A stretch of 42,648 nucleotides of DNA from Dimargaris cristalligena (Eukaryota). The position numbers and the translations under genes are program-made. The DNA is taken from the NCBI GenBank assembly GCA_003614675.1, contig ML002316.1, forward strand, positions 1 through 42,648, given 5' to 3'. Under the pieces are notes generated by a model that ran no database searches, was not told the DNA's origin, and worked only from the letters and a program-made list of their open reading frames with translations. Below, in pieces: positions 9,971-22,366 of the stretch (position 1 is the stretch's first letter; each line of letters opens with the position of its first letter).

Positions 9971-10726
9971 TGTGTAAGGGTAAGGGCGGTACGAGTTTGA
10001 AGGAAACGGGGCAAGGGTGGTGGTAAGGTACGACGACTAGACCAAATGGGTCTACCAAGCGACCAATGGAGGGGGTTGACGAAGCGGACGAAGGAGTAAT
10101 AGTACGAACTGCTAGGTAAAGAAGAGGTCGATAGACAGGTAGGTGGCTTGGCTGGAGTATAAGTATACGTAGTGACAGCCTTTTGAAAAGAGGGAATGGC
10201 CGGAGTTTGCGGGAGAGTATATGCAGTCAATGGGAATGAGGAGGGGAAAAGGTAAGAGGGAAAGTTTTGGGGTATGGCAGGAAGGGGGAGGAGGGGGGTA
10301 CTTAAAGAGCAAGGCTATGCTAAGTAGCCGAGAAGGAATATATAGAGAAGGACTATGTGGCAGTAGTAGAAGTCATCGTTATTTACAAGTCCGGAGGCGG
10401 ACCCGGCAGCAGTAATTATAGCACTGCGGACCGTAAACCCCCATCACGCACACAGCCATTGCTACCCTACACATGCACAATAATAGCTTGCTTTGGGTGT
10501 CATCCACCTCCCCTCCTCCCCCTCCAGCCTCTTTCTCTTACAAGCGAGAGAGAGAACATATAGCAGGATTTGAGGTGTGCGTGGGTGTAGAGAGGAGAGC
10601 CGCGGTGGTAACATGACCACCCATCTCCCACGTCCAATCACACCCCCACACACTCACTTCCATCTACCGTATATATAAGGTGGACAATACCCTTGGCTGG
10701 ACGGGGAAGAGAGGAAATAATAGGTA

Positions 10727-10775
10727 AGTAGTAGTAGTAGTGGTGGCAGTAGTAGTTGTTGTAGTGGTAGTAGTA
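10727..10775. repeat. Imperfect (GTA/GTG/GTT)n trinucleotide repeat
   Basis: agtagtagtagtagtggtggcagtagtagttgttgtagtggtagtagtag. Confidence 0.75.
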
Positions 10776-11719
10776 GAGGAGGACACCGGTCAGATGGTCC
10801 CGGCCCGCACAGAATACCCACGCACCCCCTCCCGCTTGTTTATGTGCCACCCGTTCTCAGGGCCCGCCCCGCTATGGGATCTCTTGCCCATACCCTTCCA
10901 TTCATTATACCTTCCAGCAAGGAAGAAAGTCCTTTCCTTACATTCTGAGATATATATATATATATGTATGTATGCGCGCATACATTCCGTCTGATCCGGC
11001 CTGTATGCGCAGAGAAAGAGAGAGAGACAGAGAGTAGAGGACCCTGGTGGCTACATAGTGTCTCATCTGGTGGATGGCACTGAGGGTGATAAATAGGCCC
11101 CCAACCACATTTAGACATAGCCCACCGATCCATGTAGTCCTTTAGGGAAATTCCGACAGCCTATTACTGTCGTTGCAGTTGCTGCTGCTGCTACTTTGCA
11201 AGCGAAGGGCTTCCCGTCCTATCTAGGGTATATGAAGAAGCGCCTGGGAGTGAGCAACCTTCACTCCCCGATACTTTCCTTCAGGAACGAAGCCACTGAC
11301 TCCAGTCTAGACACTGAAAGGATTTCAGGGCCGTGGAGATCCTCGGGTCAATTAATCAAAACTATTCAGGAATCGCCCTTCCTCCTCTTTGATTTGGCCG
11401 CACTGTCTCACCGTTTGGACAGTCGCTTTGTTACTATTTCCGCATTTCATTTTCCCAAACCCAGCCCTGTTCCACCTTCCTTTTCTGGTCCCCATGTCCA
11501 GCACCATCTACATGTATCGGGGATGTTAGTCTCGTGATAACGAAGATGGAGATAGAGATGGTGCCAACTAAGGGCTATCGGGCTGGCCCACGGGGATCTT
11601 GAAACCCCTTGGTTGACCCTGCCGCCCCAATTCCCTGTAAACAACCTTATTATTATTATCAAAGAATGCACCGGAGTCCAGAATATGATACATACAATCA
11701 ACACTACTACTAGTACCAC

Positions 11720-16742: not shown

Positions 16743-16886
16743 ATATGGGAGTAGTTCAGCAAGGCTGTGTAACGAAAAATCCATTTGATAAGGCAAATAC
16801 TACTGGTTGAAAATAAACATCCCACCGATTTTCCCATACACATATCAGTTAAACCCTTATACAGCCAAGCTGAACTTCACCCATAT
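16743..16886. mobile_element. MITE-like element with terminal inverted repeats, copy 2 (144 bp)
   Basis: Left ATATGGGAGTAGTTCAGCAAGGCTGTGTAA versus reverse complement of the right end ATATGGGTGAAGTTCAGCTTGGCTGTATAA. Same length as, and co-linear with, 1751-1894. Confidence 0.75.
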
Positions 16887-19258
16887 TGTTCCGTATTTCG
16901 CGCGCGTCGTACTACCAGATGAAGGGTTGACAGCTGCGTTTCGCAATTAGTGTATTGCCTACCTAATACTACCAGTTTTAGTTCAATTGGTGTAACTAAT
17001 CACTAGGGGAGTTGTAGTATGGCCACTTAAATGGGATGACTTGATCAGCCCTTTCTGTTGCCCCTATTTCTCCCAACTATTATGGTACAAATCGATTAGT
17101 TCTAGTATACTAGGCATTTCTGGCTTGCAAGGTTAGATATACTATGGTTGTTTTTGAATAAAATATACATTGTAGATAATTGATTATTAGAGAGTGTCGT
17201 TTCCCGGGTCTCTCATTCCCATTCGATTGCCGCATCATTCTAGTAAATCCTGATTTCTGGTTGGCTAATGCCATAAATTCATTAAGCCGCCGAGAAGCCT
17301 TCATCATGCTTCTTGCGGGGGAGGGGTTCTTTCCAGATCCAATTCATATAGCCAACCCTATATTGATATATATTACTATATCTCATTATAGCGGCTATTG
17401 AAAGAACTTGCGGTTATCAAGACCAAGCATTTACATCCTCTTCCCCCCGCTTCATGGATTGACAGTATCTTTGGTGGTACTCATTTTATGTTCTTATAAA
17501 ATCGCAATGGGGATGAGAGTACGCAGTACAATGAGAGGAGGGGGTAGAGCACTTTCCATTATTATTGCATGATGGATGGCTTCAGCCTTTTCCTTCCAGG
17601 TGCACGCCCATCATCCACCCATTCGCTGATTCATGTTTATCCATGGTGACTTTAAATAGTGACATTGAGCTCAGAGCCCATTTTGAAAATCCCGATCCAT
17701 TCCTAATATCCACACTTATTGTTAGTAGGCCGATTAGATTACGCCCCTTCAAATCTCGATGTGTGAATAGATCCTTATACTTACTACCCCATTAAATCAA
17801 TTATAATTGCGGGGGTCGGGAAGACTATACGATGCTGTATTATGTAAACAGGGTATATATCCTACCCGTTTTTCAATCATCCAGGGACTTGATTCCACTA
17901 ATACGGACCAACTGGGAAACAACCGCATTTCCTTTTACGTTGTCAAGGGCCGCCCCGTTTATTAGAGTGAAGGCTGTGTGAAAAACGGTCTCTAGAAATC
18001 TCGGCGGAGCTTCCAACCTCGGTCCCTTTCACACAACCCTGCACCCACTTATATTTCTCCGCAAGTCCATCCACACCACCCCTCCCCCTCCCAAAAAAAA
18101 ATGGTGGCGGAGCCCCCCCCTCCATTCTATTGTCCTCCAACCCGCCTTTCCGCCAACTTTAGATTCCGCTTTTTTATTATATGCTAATTGAGTGCGATGG
18201 TTCGAGAAAAAGCAGCTTCCGTTGGAGTGAAAAAGAGACCCAGGTTATTCTAATATACGGTATACTTCACCTATTCCCCGGTCCGTTCATTCATCATAGC
18301 GGCTTTATCCACTAAACGCGCTTGTCCGTCGAGTTAAGTCAGATAGATGGATTAGGTATATATAAGGTCTAGGTTGCCCCGAGGCCTCCTGGTCTATTTT
18401 CCCTACTCTATTGTTGTCAACCGTTTTCCTCTATGCCTACTATTGCAATTATTAAGCAACTTTTCGGTGCTGTTCAATCCGTATAGCAAGTACACTACTA
18501 TATTGGAATATTCCTCATACCTTCCTCGGGTTTACCAAACAACTCGGGCCCAAAACCCCTTTCTCATATATAGCTCCGCTGGCACTGTAATGTACCACTA
18601 CTGTTCGGCGCTGGGGTTTTGCTTCGGCTACATTGGACTATTCTATCGCTGATACTGGTTTTCATGCAACATTGAACCCCCTAACCCCAAAGTTTGTCAG
18701 CGGTACATGTATATATAGCTATTTTTTAAAAAAAAGAGAAAATTGGACCAAGCAAGTGTAAAGAGGTATAGTATTATAAGACCCATAGTGGCGGGAACTT
18801 ATAGAGGGTTCGACGCTCATCTCAGGTTAGAGCGGTGTTACTTTTCCACCAGGAATTAGGCCAATCTCTCCCATTTTCTTTTTATCTATTTCTCCCATGC
18901 ACAGTTCGCCTACTTTCCTTTCCTCCCTTTTCTTTTTATATATTTAAATAGAATACTAGACTGCATTGTTAAAAGTCGGCCATATACAACCACCACATCT
19001 TCCATAAAAACCGGCATTCCTTTCCATTGATACGTTGCCTCCGTCTTATAATTTCCCCGTATTACCCTTATTATCCGTTTGACTCTATACGGCAAAACCC
19101 AATCCTCCCAGCGAGAGGCGACCTTCCCACTCTTACCTCGTGTGTCCTTAGCGAGCGTGAACGACGGGTGTTGGCTATTCGTTGATCTGACACACTCACG
19201 ATAAAACCGCTTGTCGCTTCAGTTGATTTATTTAATTTTTTAGCTGCCAACGCTAATC

Positions 19259-21114
19259 ATGAACGAGTCGACCTCGCCCGAGTCCTACTTTTACTGCATA
19301 TCAGCCAAACCCAAACCAGGTACATTCTCATTTACCGTGCTTTGCCTTTGAGTATATATATATATATATATATATATTAACCGTGTAATAGTCCCGGACG
19401 CGTTCAAATTACGTGATTGTGAATGGAGATGGGGCAACCGTTACCATCGCTAGGCATTAACCCCGACAATAGACTTACCCTGGTAATTGGGAAGGTGCAT
19501 TGCCGGCAACCGGAAGCGATTGCCAGATGCAATTGCAAACCTTCGCCAACGTGCCTTACCGGGCCACAATAGTCATGAACGCGACCCTTTCTCATGAAAG
19601 ATTGTAGTAACAACCGCGACTAACTTACCATCGGATACTGTAAACTCGTGTTTGTATATCCGTGTGTATTGTATATTGACGATGTTTCCACTGGCTAGAT
19701 AAACCCTCTAATGATAGACACTGCCTGTCCGCAGCCCACGACCTTTTATGCCAGTTCAATCTCCTACCACTGTACGATAAATATGTCCGACCTTATAATC
19801 CTAAACCGGAAGAGCTGGGTAAGTTTACCGTATATCTATATGTAAATGGTCTGGTTACCTTCTACGTGTGCGCACGCACATGCGTGCACCAATGATTCAA
19901 TATTTAACATGCTAGTCCACTGTGTTATCGCTTCCGTGGTCTTCGTTCTATATCCATCGCGTGCGGATGCGTTAATGTTCTTTATTTCCCATCGGTGATT
20001 AAATCAGAGGAGGCCCGTAACGGAGTGGCCCCCACAGAGAGCTCGATGATAGGCAATCTCAGCAAAGGTCGACAAATGCAGGAGACCCCCGTGGAGTATA
20101 TTCGGGATCTACCAGGTAATGTCACTACTATTATTATTATTTAACAAAAATTCACGTGGTATCGATCACAATGTGTACCACTGCCTTTTTTTTATTTGGT
20201 GCCAAGCATCACTACTTTGCGGACCCCGTAATTACGCCGGCTCCTTTATGTCGGCGTTTTATATTGTACCGGCCATGATTGGTGGTCGGAATGCGAAAAC
20301 TCTATTAGGTTATTTGTCCACTCTGCCCACGTTTCTTGTTGGGCCTTAGAATAGCCAGTGAACTAATCATGCCAATCTATATCCTGTTTTAATTATACAT
20401 ATCAACCGCTGTTTACTCATCTAGGTACTTCCAATATTACATTCGAGCCCAGTGTTTATCTCCGTGATCTCATCTTCGAACCTCCCAAAGATAGGGTCGC
20501 CATTGAACCCTTTGACACAAGTAACTTGATCGATAATCTGATCCAGCATGCCGGGCCCTCCCATCGGGTACGTTTCGTAATCCTCATTATTGATATAATG
20601 GCCTTGTGATCTATAATGTTTTGCCTTACTGCGCACCCAACCCCAGGGGTTCTTGCACTGTAACAATAATAGATTCTTGGTTTTGCTAATCCCTCCCCTT
20701 CCCTCTTCTCACCCTCCCATACCCTCACATTTTACGTCCAATCTCGTCAATACTTTTTTTTAATGCGGGAAATAGATCCATACCACGTCATTCAGCCACG
20801 ACACGACCAATCCCATGGCCCCCATGGCCAAGCCCACTTTGATTATCAGCCGTTCGTTATTCAATACCGATAACAATCCTAAGCTACCCCAAGACGATCC
20901 CGAAACCGGCAATCTCGGTTTACTTCCCGCCTACCAAGGGTACGATGGCGATCTACCCATCTACGAAGGGGAAGGGTCGGCTGAGCGGAAGCACAAGAAG
21001 AAAAAGAAGAAGCATAAGCACGAGTACGATTACATTGACGAGAATGGCGAGCCAAGGCGTAAAAAGAAGAGGAAAAAGGACAAGGAAACGGGGGAAAGCG
21101 AAGAACACCACTAG
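19259..21114 (+). CDS. MED19: Mediator complex subunit 19 (Med19/Rox3), ~256 aa
   Basis: Exons 19259-19319, 19699-19818, 20008-20115, 20425-20567, 20776-21114 join in frame. Motifs LSAAHDLLCQFNLLPLYDKYVRP, YIRDLPG, YLRDLIFEPPK...IEPFD and a Lys-rich tail KHKKKKKKHKH...RRKKKRKKDK. Confidence 0.88.
19353..19377. repeat. (TA)n microsatellite in MED19 intron 1
   Basis: Run of about 12 TA units. Confidence 0.9.
19381..19634 (+). ncRNA. Candidate intronic structured RNA (possibly H/ACA snoRNA-like) in MED19 intron 1
   Basis: Nested helices covering most of ~250 nt (listed in findings). ACAATA (H-box pattern) at 19466-19471 and ACA at 19566-19568 flank an 85-nt hairpin. Confidence 0.5.
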
Positions 21115-22144
21115 ACTTTTTTTTAGTCTCATTGGCTGTTTTTTTTTTCTTCTGTGATCTTCACCCCAATATATATATACATATATATGTGTGTATGTGT
21201 GGCAGATTGTGTGCTTTAAGTCCACCGCCTTCTTTATATACATTGCAAGTGAAATGTTCGAGAATGTATTATTTATTTATATAATTTTTTGATGAAGTAA
21301 ATAAACCGCCTTGGCGGTGAATAAATGATGATTTTTTTTTTTGGAACTAATGATGTAGGTGGTGTAAAATATTGGTGAAATAAACATGCCAATTGGATTT
21401 CGAGGATACCGTAGGTAGTAGAGAGGTACAACCACGGTTTGTGTTATCTACAATGAATTCATCGGTCAAAACCTTTAAATAAAATATACCGCAGGGATAT
21501 GGATACGTATATGTAAAACCAGCCATTTTACCTTAAACCCGAGCAAGCACATGGCCATTAGTAAAGCAGATGTCGAAAATCAAGTGGGGCGGTAGAATTC
21601 ATATAGGAATATTAGCTGTGCCACTATCTTGTAATAGTGTCACAAAGTCAGCTAGAAGATACTGGCATATTTATGTGTAGTGGGTTTTCAGCACCCGGTA
21701 CCAAATTATAATTAGACTAACTGAATATATACCTGGCCTACAATAAACCAAAGATATCACCCCGACTAGCATGTATCCTTTAAGCTGATATTTGATATGT
21801 CAGTGTAGCCATTGCAGCCAGCTAATTCAATAATGTCCATCCAAAGAAACAAAGGCATTCTTTCACAGCCCCGCCATTATCCATATTGCCACGGTGACAT
21901 TATCATGTGTATATGGAATCATTAAGTCCAGCTGGCTTTTAACCTATGCTATTTTCTAAAAAAAATAATGAATTAAACAATTGGCATGATTTATTAAATA
22001 AATAGACATCACAATATAAAAAGAATGTTATATCCTTATATGTATAATTTCTTATATATACATATTTGATGGTGACAATAATGTAAGAAATGATTTCATT
22101 TAACCCACACCTTAGCAGGGGCCTCCTAGTTTGTTTGTTGTTGA

Positions 22145-22366
22145 TTAACTGGAGGCTGGGATGTCGACCTGACCCCGGTCAGCCTCAATGAGTTTGTACC
22201 GGGGATCATGGATGGGGTAATCCCTCAGGATAAAGGAGGGATACCTAAAGTCACCCCCAGCAGGGTGACTATATGGAATAGTTCCCTACATTACTGCAGA
22301 GGATGGCAAGTATGTATTTATACTGGCAGTCCAAGGGTTGGCGAAAATGGTGTTTTTTCTTGCCAT
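22145..22366 (-). pseudogene. Small 73-codon ORF interrupted by one in-frame TAG
   Basis: TATAAATA near 22515-22522 (- strand), CT-rich leader, CACAATGG start context: MARKNTIFANPWTASINTYLPSSAVM*GTIPYSHPAGGDFRYPSFILRDYPIHDPRYKLIEADRGQVDIPASS. No recognised homology. Confidence 0.3.

Follow-up and report, generated by a model that had tools for sequence, protein, structure and literature searches.

Does a stretch of about 250 nt inside an intron, predicted to be extensively base-paired, act on splicing, give rise to an RNA of its own, or simply fold as introns do? The question is raised by positions 19381-19634 of a 42,648-nt stretch of DNA (the window) from Dimargaris cristalligena, a mycoparasitic early-diverging fungus. 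An earlier note on this DNA placed the element in intron 1 of MED19, described it as sequestering a branch point and regarded it either as a cis element that controls MED19 splicing or as an intron-encoded non-coding RNA.

Host Gene and First Intron

Exon structure and orthologues indicate that positions 19320-19698, which hold the element, form a genuine first intron in a MED19-like gene, in agreement with the placement proposed before. Exons 1 and 2 are both backed by orthologues. Exon 1 (19259-19319, + strand) begins with the ATG at 19259 and comprises 20 codons plus one base; no other substantive exon running from ATG to GT ahead of the acceptor has the right phase, and its sequence 'ESYFYCISAK' aligns with the N-terminal 'ANLFYCVQNK' of P0006, the Dimargaris verticillata orthologue. 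Intron 1 (+ strand) is 379 nt long, reads GTACAT...TAG and has its acceptor AG at 19697-98. Exon 2 (19699-19818, + strand) is in phase 1 and encodes ...LSAAHDLLCQFNLLPLYDKYVRPYNPKPEEL; its frame is conserved with P0003 (BLASTP 2e-11). Since this frame lacks an ATG and a stop at 19677-79 closes it, the gene requires an exon further upstream. MED19 orthologues include KAJ1981903.1 of Dimargaris verticillata, IWQ61_008553 of Dispira simplex and IWQ60_011142 of Tieghemiomyces parasiticus; the exons that flank intron 1 are marked by '..FYC..' and 'LSGSxDLL', respectively. The public protein model of the gene starts in the wrong frame, and the correction of that start is a by-product more solid than the fold itself.

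Family assignment draws on several sources. The proteins P0002, P0003 and P0004 score 12-13 bits against Pfam Med19 (PF10278), below its cut-off of 25, with E-values of 0.12, 0.10 and 0.24 and mutually consistent profile positions. The UniRef name 'Mediator of RNA polymerase II transcription subunit 19', assigned automatically, is carried by P0006 and by P0008 from Batrachochytrium. A PDB profile search returned no Mediator chain, single exons had no usable match in Pfam, the PDB or the protein Atlas, and a MED19 profile scan of metagenome contigs produced 194 pattern matches, of which none was confirmed. Contigs of runs X4 and X5 break within intron 1, at 19353-19377. The word 'intron' is absent from the paper on Kickxellomycotina genomes (PMC9866270).

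Probable Branch Site and AG-free Tail

The motif GACTAAC (19618-19624, + strand) starts 13 nt past the last internal AG. The claim that no AG occurs between it and the acceptor holds for the whole of 19625-19696 (+ strand), a stretch whose own fold is ordinary (z -0.11). Being the only CTRAY in intron 1 and followed by an AG-free tail, GACTAAC is probably the true branch site, with A19623 as the putative branch adenosine. There is evidence that Dimargaris cristalligena uses branch sites lying 57-87 nt from the acceptor, with AG-free tails.

Predicted Fold

Every complementary segment described in the earlier note is found in the sequence, at the coordinates given there. CGCGTTCA/TGAACGCG, ATTGTG/CACAAT, GATGG/CCATC, CTTTC/GAAAG and TTGT/ACAA are perfect complements, and a single C:C mismatch interrupts the outer helix TAGTCCCGG/CCGCGACTA. 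The minimum free energy (MFE) structure from RNAfold, with all parts on the + strand, combines a four-way junction with an 85-nt rod. In the outer helix, the 5' arm at 19385-19397 (GUAA / UAGUC / CGG) pairs with a 3' arm at 19614-19628 that includes the branch motif; its pair probability is 0.96-0.97 at 19389-97 and 0.40-0.89 at 19385-88. The second long-range helix joins CGCGTTCA (19399-19406) to its perfect complement at 19576-19583, with a pair probability of 0.94-0.96 in all contexts. The rod hairpin spans 19479-19563 (base-helix probability ~0.8), and the small hairpins of the junction are CTTTC/GAAAG at 19587-19600 (0.99) and TTGT/ACAA at 19602-19613 (about 0.6-0.77). Both long-range helices (outer and CGCGTTCA), the base of the rod and both small hairpins have ensemble pair probabilities of 0.77-0.99. 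The core helices are retained in 560-nt and 908-nt contexts with probabilities of 0.61-0.98, the weakest being the hairpin at 19602-13 (0.76 and 0.61, respectively). RNAfold returns the four-way junction and rod claimed in the note, but ATTGTG/CACAAT (0.08) and GATGG/CCATC (0.21), which the note had also included, are not favoured in the ensemble.

Several words recur within the intron. AATAGTC..ACGCG occurs at 19387 and 19568, with a looser copy at 19603, and AATAGTCCCGGACGCG and AATAGTCATGAACGCG form direct repeats with 81% likeness. CGCG is found three times in the 254 nt (ACGCGT at 19398, AACGCG at 19578 and CCGCGA at 19614) against 72 times in 42,648 nt; ACGCGT itself occurs only three times in the window.

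The proposal that the fold sequesters the branch point agrees with the prediction for most of the motif. The predicted probability of being unpaired, P(unpaired), along GACTAAC is 0.01, 0.00, 0.01, 0.01, 0.11, 0.94 and 0.94; five of the seven bases (19618-22, 0.00-0.11) are thus paired in the favoured fold, and A19623 and C19624 are unpaired. The mean over the heptamer is 0.29 compared to 0.62±0.16 in shuffles, 6 of 120 of which are as masked, so that predicted masking of the branch site is marginal when set against chance. The path from the 5' splice site to the branch motif is reduced from 298 to 29 steps in the MFE graph; this distance, taken from the MFE structure only, compares to 42.8±18 in 120 shuffles, of which 34 are as short.

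Fold Statistics Compared to Chance

Statistical support for the fold is modest. The comparison with shuffled sequence that the earlier note had suggested gives z -2.81 on the + strand, with 2 of 200 shuffles as good, but the tail of the local background reaches the same score: z<=-2.8 was seen in 5 of 235 sampled 254-nt windows of the 42.6-kb window, and in 4 of 117 when only the - strand is considered. At the rate of 5/235, several of the ~336 non-overlapping strand-windows in 42.6 kb are expected to reach this value. The - strand of the element has an MFE of -91.5 and z -3.37 (1 of 200 shuffles as good), and the - strand of the whole intron has z -3.60 (0 of 150). By GC-corrected MFE, the element ranks 54th of 848 on the + strand and 6th of 848 on the - strand. 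A z based on dinucleotide regression was not used because its RMSE of 7.3 kcal/mol exceeds the shuffle spread of 4.4.

Most of the signal comes from the rod, the best-supported sub-structure: folded by itself, it gives z -3.47 on the + strand (1 of 150 shuffles) and -3.78 on the - strand. Positions 19381-19478, the left third, are no more structured than expected (z +0.42). The MFE structure has 24 long-range pairs compared to 21.9±11.8 in shuffles, a number equalled or exceeded in 79 of 200 shuffles and 180 of 438 natural windows. Counting only long-range pairs with p>=0.9 gives 19 against 2.9±5.1, with 3 of 150 shuffles reaching it in the element context and 20 of 150 in the whole-intron context. 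Overall, the statistics do not clearly lift the fold above the tail of the local background. The strongest-folding windows, 10451-10750 and 22001-22350, were considered as sister elements and rejected, neither having long inverted repeats; 10480-10780 consists of low-complexity CT/GA tracts.

Non-coding RNA Features

A search for Rfam families, which the earlier note had called for, gave no match reaching the gathering score anywhere in the window, on either strand; within 19200-19800 there are only three matches, all with E>5 and all in a TA repeat, and no snoRNA family at E<=10. The alternative H/ACA fold proposed in that note has the right box layout, with an H box ACAATA at 19466, an ACA at 19566 and a 94-nt 3' hairpin between them; no other layout of this kind on the + strand has a strong 3' hairpin. 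The spacing also stands, at 16 nt from the upper-stem CCAA to ACA, or 21 nt once TTGG/CCAA is opened. The pocket does not: an H/ACA pocket is a two-sided internal loop with its top 14-16 nt from the box, whereas the 3' hairpin has a one-sided bulge, with 6 nt (CGTGCC) on its 3' side facing 0 nt on the 5' side. The 5' hairpin is weak as well.

The features of C/D box snoRNAs (RUGAUGA, and CUGA by a terminal stem) were not found, since CTGA and TGATGA are missing from both strands of 19320-19698 and the only C-box-like word with one mismatch is GTCATGA at 19572. A possible U1-like element, ACTTACC(C)TGG at 19473, was likewise rejected, as no U1 model matched at E<=10.

Copy Number and Strain Comparison

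Dispersed copies, which according to the earlier note would have pointed to a transposon-derived foldback, are absent. No second copy of the element was found within the 42,648-nt window, and at a likeness threshold of >=80% the depth over 19515-19715 corresponds to a single spanning contig in all four runs. As a control served a MITE-like element at 16743-16887, to which hundreds of contigs match, with summed depths of 4x10^4 to 8x10^5; this very abundant element lies near the MED19-like gene. A two-arm DNA pattern of the CGCGTTCA helix is present at at least 120 loci, and among the matches listed none is similar to the MED19 intron by blastn (E<=0.01), indicating chance matches. In a second strain (X5), there are 0 changes in 19386-19634 and 15 differences per 2,987 nt; as ~1.25 changes would be expected in the element, the lack of differences says little.

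Possible Explanations for the Fold

The most likely explanation, to which we give about an even chance, is ordinary intron folding that is weakly or not maintained by selection; the RNA presumably adopts the fold in the cell and likely has no dedicated function. The pre-mRNA stretch would fold into a compact domain within the 379-nt intron, the rod arising locally from an imperfect inverted repeat and the two long-range helices, by which the four-way junction would be closed, arising partly from the repeated CGCG-containing words. The better fold of the - strand fits such DNA-level inverted repeats rather than a strand-specific RNA. The domain would loop out ~220 nt, U2 snRNP could pair with the branch site only after displacing a short helix with interruptions (5+3 bp, plus 4 optional), and any effect would be in cis on splicing. 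Counted against ordinary folding are the z of -2.81 and that of the rod (-3.47), the number of pairs with p>=0.9, branch masking greater than in 114 of 120 shuffles, the persistence of the core helices in the 560-nt and 908-nt contexts and the CGCG enrichment. The main rival is a cis-acting splicing element, which is possible though rather doubtful: the junction would compact the interval from 5' splice site to branch in a zipper-like manner, the outer helix would mask the branch motif and, with a weak GTACAT donor, removal of intron 1 and MED19 output would hinge on the opening of that helix by temperature, helicases or a bound factor. This rival draws on five motif bases paired at p>=0.89 beside A19623 and C19624 unpaired at 0.94, masking matched by only 6 of 120 shuffles, helices robust in larger contexts at z -2.8, and the status of GACTAAC as the only CTRAY with an AG-free tail; introns of S. 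cerevisiae are moreover documented to contain zipper stems, downstream stems and multiway junctions (PMC12350175). It is weakened by a path shortening no better than chance (34 of 120 shuffles), by the positions of the helices, which fall outside the zipper-stem definition with the outer helix overlapping the branch site, by the short and interrupted nature of the masking helix, and by the better folding of the - strand.

The element is most likely neither a separate RNA gene nor a mobile element. A stable non-coding RNA released from the excised intron, whether H/ACA-like or from a class not yet described, is unlikely: the hairpin-ACAATA-rod hairpin-ACA layout with its 16-nt spacing and the well-supported rod (z -3.5) speak for it, as does the poor coverage of early-diverging fungal snoRNAs by Rfam, but the window has no Rfam match, the bulge is one-sided, the 5' hairpin is weak, the C/D boxes are absent, and size and junction architecture misfit both snoRNA classes. 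An RNA from the opposite strand, the better predicted folder (MFE -91.5, z -3.37, 6th of 848; whole intron -3.60, 0 of 150 shuffles), is more improbable still, given no Rfam match on either strand, no snoRNA boxes and - strand background windows that reach z<=-2.8 in 4 of 117 cases. Equally improbable is a DNA-level element in which palindromic CGCG words serve as putative transcription-factor sites in a promoter-proximal first intron and the RNA helices are a by-product. The three CGCG words, the rarity of ACGCGT, which we take to resemble the MluI cell-cycle box of yeasts, the 81% alike repeats and folding on both strands would fit this explanation; it leaves the rod, the bearer of most of the signal, unexplained, and the CGCG enrichment was noticed post hoc. 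The slimmest chance is given to a decayed foldback or MITE insertion, now single-copy, in intron 1. The overall foldback shape, the abundance of a MITE-like element elsewhere in the genome and ends (GTCCCGG and CCGCGAC) that are 6/7 complementary with TA beside each, if the end TA is taken as flank, are in its favour, but there is no second copy in the window, depth is single-copy in four of four runs, and the complementary ends are far too short for terminal inverted repeats.

Significance

The strand 5'-GUAAUAGUC-3' (19385-93) of the intron can be read as U2-like, and it would be very surprising if it were a built-in U2 decoy that gates excision of intron 1. Complementarity to a branch site makes any sequence resemble U2. 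If the decoy were real, output of a core Mediator subunit would be gated by temperature, helicase activity or a bound factor. If the fold were conserved, it would represent an intron structure touching the branch site outside budding yeasts, in a gene for a core transcription factor, and a simple system for the competition of pre-formed helices with U2. At present it is another predicted intron fold. Further solid by-products are the evidence on branch-site and AG-free-tail usage and the nearby abundant MITE-like element.

Comparison with Known Systems

Like intron-encoded H/ACA snoRNAs, the element is intronic, has a hairpin-ANANNA-hairpin-ACA order and places its upper stem 16 nt from ACA; unlike them, it has no two-sided guide pocket, its 5' hairpin is weak, it belongs to no Rfam family and its outer helices fall outside the would-be snoRNA. 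It shares the foldback shape and short complementary ends of MITE and foldback transposons, but is single copy.

In the duplex of U2 snRNA with the branch site, and in domain VI of group II introns, the branch adenosine is unpaired at a helix. The predicted MED19 outer helix is similar in that its 5' arm ..UAGUC pairs with GACUA, leaving the putative branch A unpaired beside the helix, and when GUAA/UUAC is formed (p 0.4-0.9) A19623 would be bulged between two helices. It differs in having two unpaired bases rather than one and, compared to the U2 duplex, in being intramolecular, so that it would compete with U2 rather than replace it.

Alternative intron structures are reported to inhibit splicing in the autoregulation of RPL7B, RPL18B and RPS22B, and PMC2275289 describes a branch site sequestered by an engineered theophylline switch. 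As in these systems, a splicing signal lies within a helix of the MED19 intron, and such pairing could lower splicing efficiency; the predicted masking helix here is short and interrupted.

According to PMC12350175, a zipper stem has >=6 bp, and the linkers that connect it with the 5' splice site and with the branch sequence total 42-85 nt. The linkers of the CGCGTTCA helix are 73 + 34 = 107 nt, and the shortening of the distance from 5' splice site to branch is within the shuffle range. Compared to the yeast zipper-stem introns of that source, the branch motif of MED19 is not free but covered by the outermost helix, the host is a zoopagomycete Mediator gene rather than a yeast ribosomal-protein gene, and the fold is predicted. 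With those same introns it shares a long intron with an ACTAAC-like branch motif far from the acceptor, an interior looped out by long-range helices and a multiway junction.

Host gene and intron 1

The predicted folded RNA domain at 19381-19634 (the element) lies where the earlier note had placed it, within the real first intron of a MED19-like gene whose exons 1 and 2 are supported by orthologues. P0002, the public 207-aa 'hypothetical protein' of Dimargaris cristalligena, matches a 47-residue exon at 100% identity; its model starts at ATG 19783 and reads exon 2 in another frame. P0003 of Dispira simplex and P0006 of Dimargaris verticillata, both orthologues, share the conserved block LSGSxDLLxxFxLxxLYxxYVxPY, which aligns with the window frame 19701-19817 (18/31 identical, E 2e-11). 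Since this frame lacks an ATG and meets a stop on its upstream side at 19677-79, the gene needs a further exon upstream. The sole substantive ATG-to-GT exon in matching phase is 19259-19319, where ESYFYCISAK aligns with ANLFYCVQNK at the P0006 N-terminus (E 0.008 for the pair), and together with the supported exon-2 frame it places intron 1 at 19320-19698 (GTACAT...TAG). The P0002 model misses the conserved N-terminal block and the 20-codon first exon (19259-19319), and its frame is not supported by the orthologues; at the tandem acceptor CAGAG (20005-20009) it and the orthologue-supported model pick different AGs. Intron 1 also carries a (TA)12 microsatellite (19353-19377), at which contigs from two runs break.

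MED19 is a reasonable but soft name for the host gene, its basis being the UniRef automatic names of P0006 and of the Batrachochytrium orthologue P0008. Three orthologues match Pfam Med19, all below its cut-off (E 0.10-0.24), and a PDB profile search returned no Mediator chain.

Probable branch site

As described previously, GACTAAC occupies 19618-24 and no AG occurs in 19625-19696 ahead of the acceptor AG at 19697-98. AG-free tails of 65-102 nt terminate all four introns of the gene (19320-20775), and in three of the four the only CTRAY of the intron lies 6-15 nt past the last internal AG and 57-87 nt from the acceptor. The sole CTRAY of intron 1 is CTAAC at 19620; because it soon follows the last internal AG and precedes an AG-free tail, the sequence supports GACTAAC, with A19623, as the probable branch site. 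This pattern shows that long predicted branch-to-acceptor distances are normal in the MED19-like gene, and suggests that distant branch sites with first-AG choice may be used in D. cristalligena, in which one gene was examined.

The sequestration of this site proposed in the earlier note holds in part. The predicted ensemble pairs G19618-A19622 (unpaired probability 0.00-0.11) but leaves A19623 and C19624 open (0.94), and the masking is marginal: the heptamer has a mean accessibility of 0.29, compared with 0.62±0.16 when the upstream intron was shuffled 120 times, and six of these shuffles were as masked. The word ACTTACC, at 19473-19479 and 19623-19629, complements the donor consensus GGTAAGT, including the intron 2 donor at 19818; two of its five plus-strand occurrences in the window fall inside intron 1, the second overlapping the branch motif, and this pair may be coincidental.

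Predicted fold and comparison with chance

All of the complementary words reported for the element are present; the outer helix TAGTCCCGG/CCGCGACTA contains one C:C mismatch, the sole flaw among the helices. RNAfold reproduces the proposed architecture on the plus strand: a four-way junction, closed by the outer helix (19381-97 paired to 19614-34), contains the second helix CGCGTTCA/TGAACGCG (19399-406/19576-83) and two small hairpins, with the 85-nt rod (19479-19563) inside the closed domain. In the element ensemble the core helices pair at probabilities of 0.77-0.99, and they are retained when the whole intron, or a 560-nt or 908-nt context, is folded (0.61-0.98 in the latter two), whereas ATTGTG/CACAAT (0.08) and GATGG/CCATC (0.21) are not favoured. 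The predicted fold has two sources: the rod, which is an imperfect inverted repeat, and recurring words that contain CGCG.

The plus-strand fold is better than most shuffles (z -2.81; 2/200 as good), as is that of the rod alone (z -3.47; 1/150), but the background tail reaches the same level, with z<=-2.8 in 5 of 235 sampled same-size windows scored with 25 shuffles each (1/118 plus, 4/117 minus). By GC-corrected MFE the element ranks 54/848 on the plus strand. Its position in the background tail is weak evidence, because the window's best-looking fold was the one selected in the earlier note. The element has 19 long-range pairs with p>=0.9 against 2.9±5.1 in shuffles (reached by 3/150), and the whole intron has 14 against 5.1±7.0 (20/150). 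The 24 MFE pairs spanning at least 150 nt are average (shuffles 21.9±11.8), as many being found in 79/200 shuffles and 180/438 natural windows. Excess structure is absent from the left third of the element (z +0.42), from the branch-to-acceptor stretch (z -0.11) and from introns 2 and 4 (z -0.20, +0.65); intron 3 reaches z -2.16 on the plus strand. Of all predicted folds in the window the strongest, at 10480-10780 (z -4.33), consists of low-complexity CT-rich tracts pairing with GA-rich and GTA-repeat tracts and forms no discrete element.

Copy number and relatives

The element is single copy. No second copy was found in the window by blastn, and in each of four DNA runs, whose contigs were compared with the window at 80% likeness, depth over 19515-19715 equals that of the single spanning contig. 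For dispersed foldbacks the same comparison contains its own positive control, a 145-nt element (16743-16887) whose terminal inverted repeats measure ~26 nt (ATATGGGAGTAGTTCAGCAAGGCTGT ... ACAGCCAAGCTGAACTTCACCCATAT): hundreds of variant contigs occur in all four runs, with summed depth of 4x10^4 to 8x10^5 against ~10^2 in flanking sequence. This 145-nt element has the appearance of a very abundant MITE-like repeat of the D. cristalligena genome, and has no tRNA or Rfam match. A second multi-copy stretch, 22187-22256, has several divergent contigs per run, and depth of bin 22128-22328 is raised in all four.

Over 2,987 nt the run of a second strain (X5) carries 11 substitutions and 4 indels relative to the window; it has no differences in 19386-19634, but only ~1.25 were expected, so this is uninformative. 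A MED19-profile scan of metagenome contigs for orthologous DNA confirmed nothing, and a DNA-pattern scan gave, among the matches listed, only chance ones.

Alternative explanations

The complementarity and predicted fold in 19381-19634 are real, with modest statistical weight and a putative function only. The reading as ordinary folding within a real intron, under weak or no selection, is by our own judgement, as for all the readings here, about evenly balanced against everything else. On this reading any cis effect on splicing would be at most modest, because U2 would have to displace a short, interrupted helix. A cis-acting splicing structure, in which a compacting junction and branch-site masking would act with the weak GTACAT donor, is a possible but clearly less probable reading. 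It draws on the marginal masking statistic (6/120 shuffles) and the robustness of the helices in larger contexts; against it, compaction is no better than chance (the fold shortens the 5'ss-to-branch path from 298 steps to 29, and 34/120 shuffles do so equally), and the fold does not fit the S. cerevisiae zipper stem as defined in PMC12350175 by 42-85 nt of linkers.

An intron-hosted stable RNA seems improbable. The window matches no Rfam family at gathering score, and at E<=10 within 19200-19800 only spurious miRNA and nos_TCE matches in the TA microsatellite appear; the element itself is without a family match. Neither strand of intron 1 contains CTGA or TGATGA, and the only near match to a C box is GTCATGA. 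The suggested H/ACA alternative retains its layout (H box 19466, ACA 19566, 16 nt from upper stem to ACA) but is not supported: in place of a two-sided pocket the 3' hairpin offers no more than a 6-nt bulge on one side, and the 5' hairpin is weak. The minus strand folds better than the plus (element z -3.37, whole intron z -3.60), which DNA-level inverted or palindromic repeats fit at least as well as a plus-strand RNA; putative DNA-level CGCG sites and a possible antisense RNA are each still more doubtful than a stable intronic RNA. Least likely is a relic foldback insertion, the many dispersed copies of a transposon foldback having been found in neither the window nor the four runs.

Comparison with known systems

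The element, in which the branch A stays unpaired next to a UAGUC/GACUA helix, is reminiscent in its geometry of group II domain VI and the U2-branch-site duplex, a likeness that complementarity to a branch site entails. Structured yeast introns, which have zipper stems and multiway junctions (PMC12350175), are the nearest known kind, followed by introns whose alternative folds inhibit splicing and by engineered branch-site sequestration (PMC2275289).
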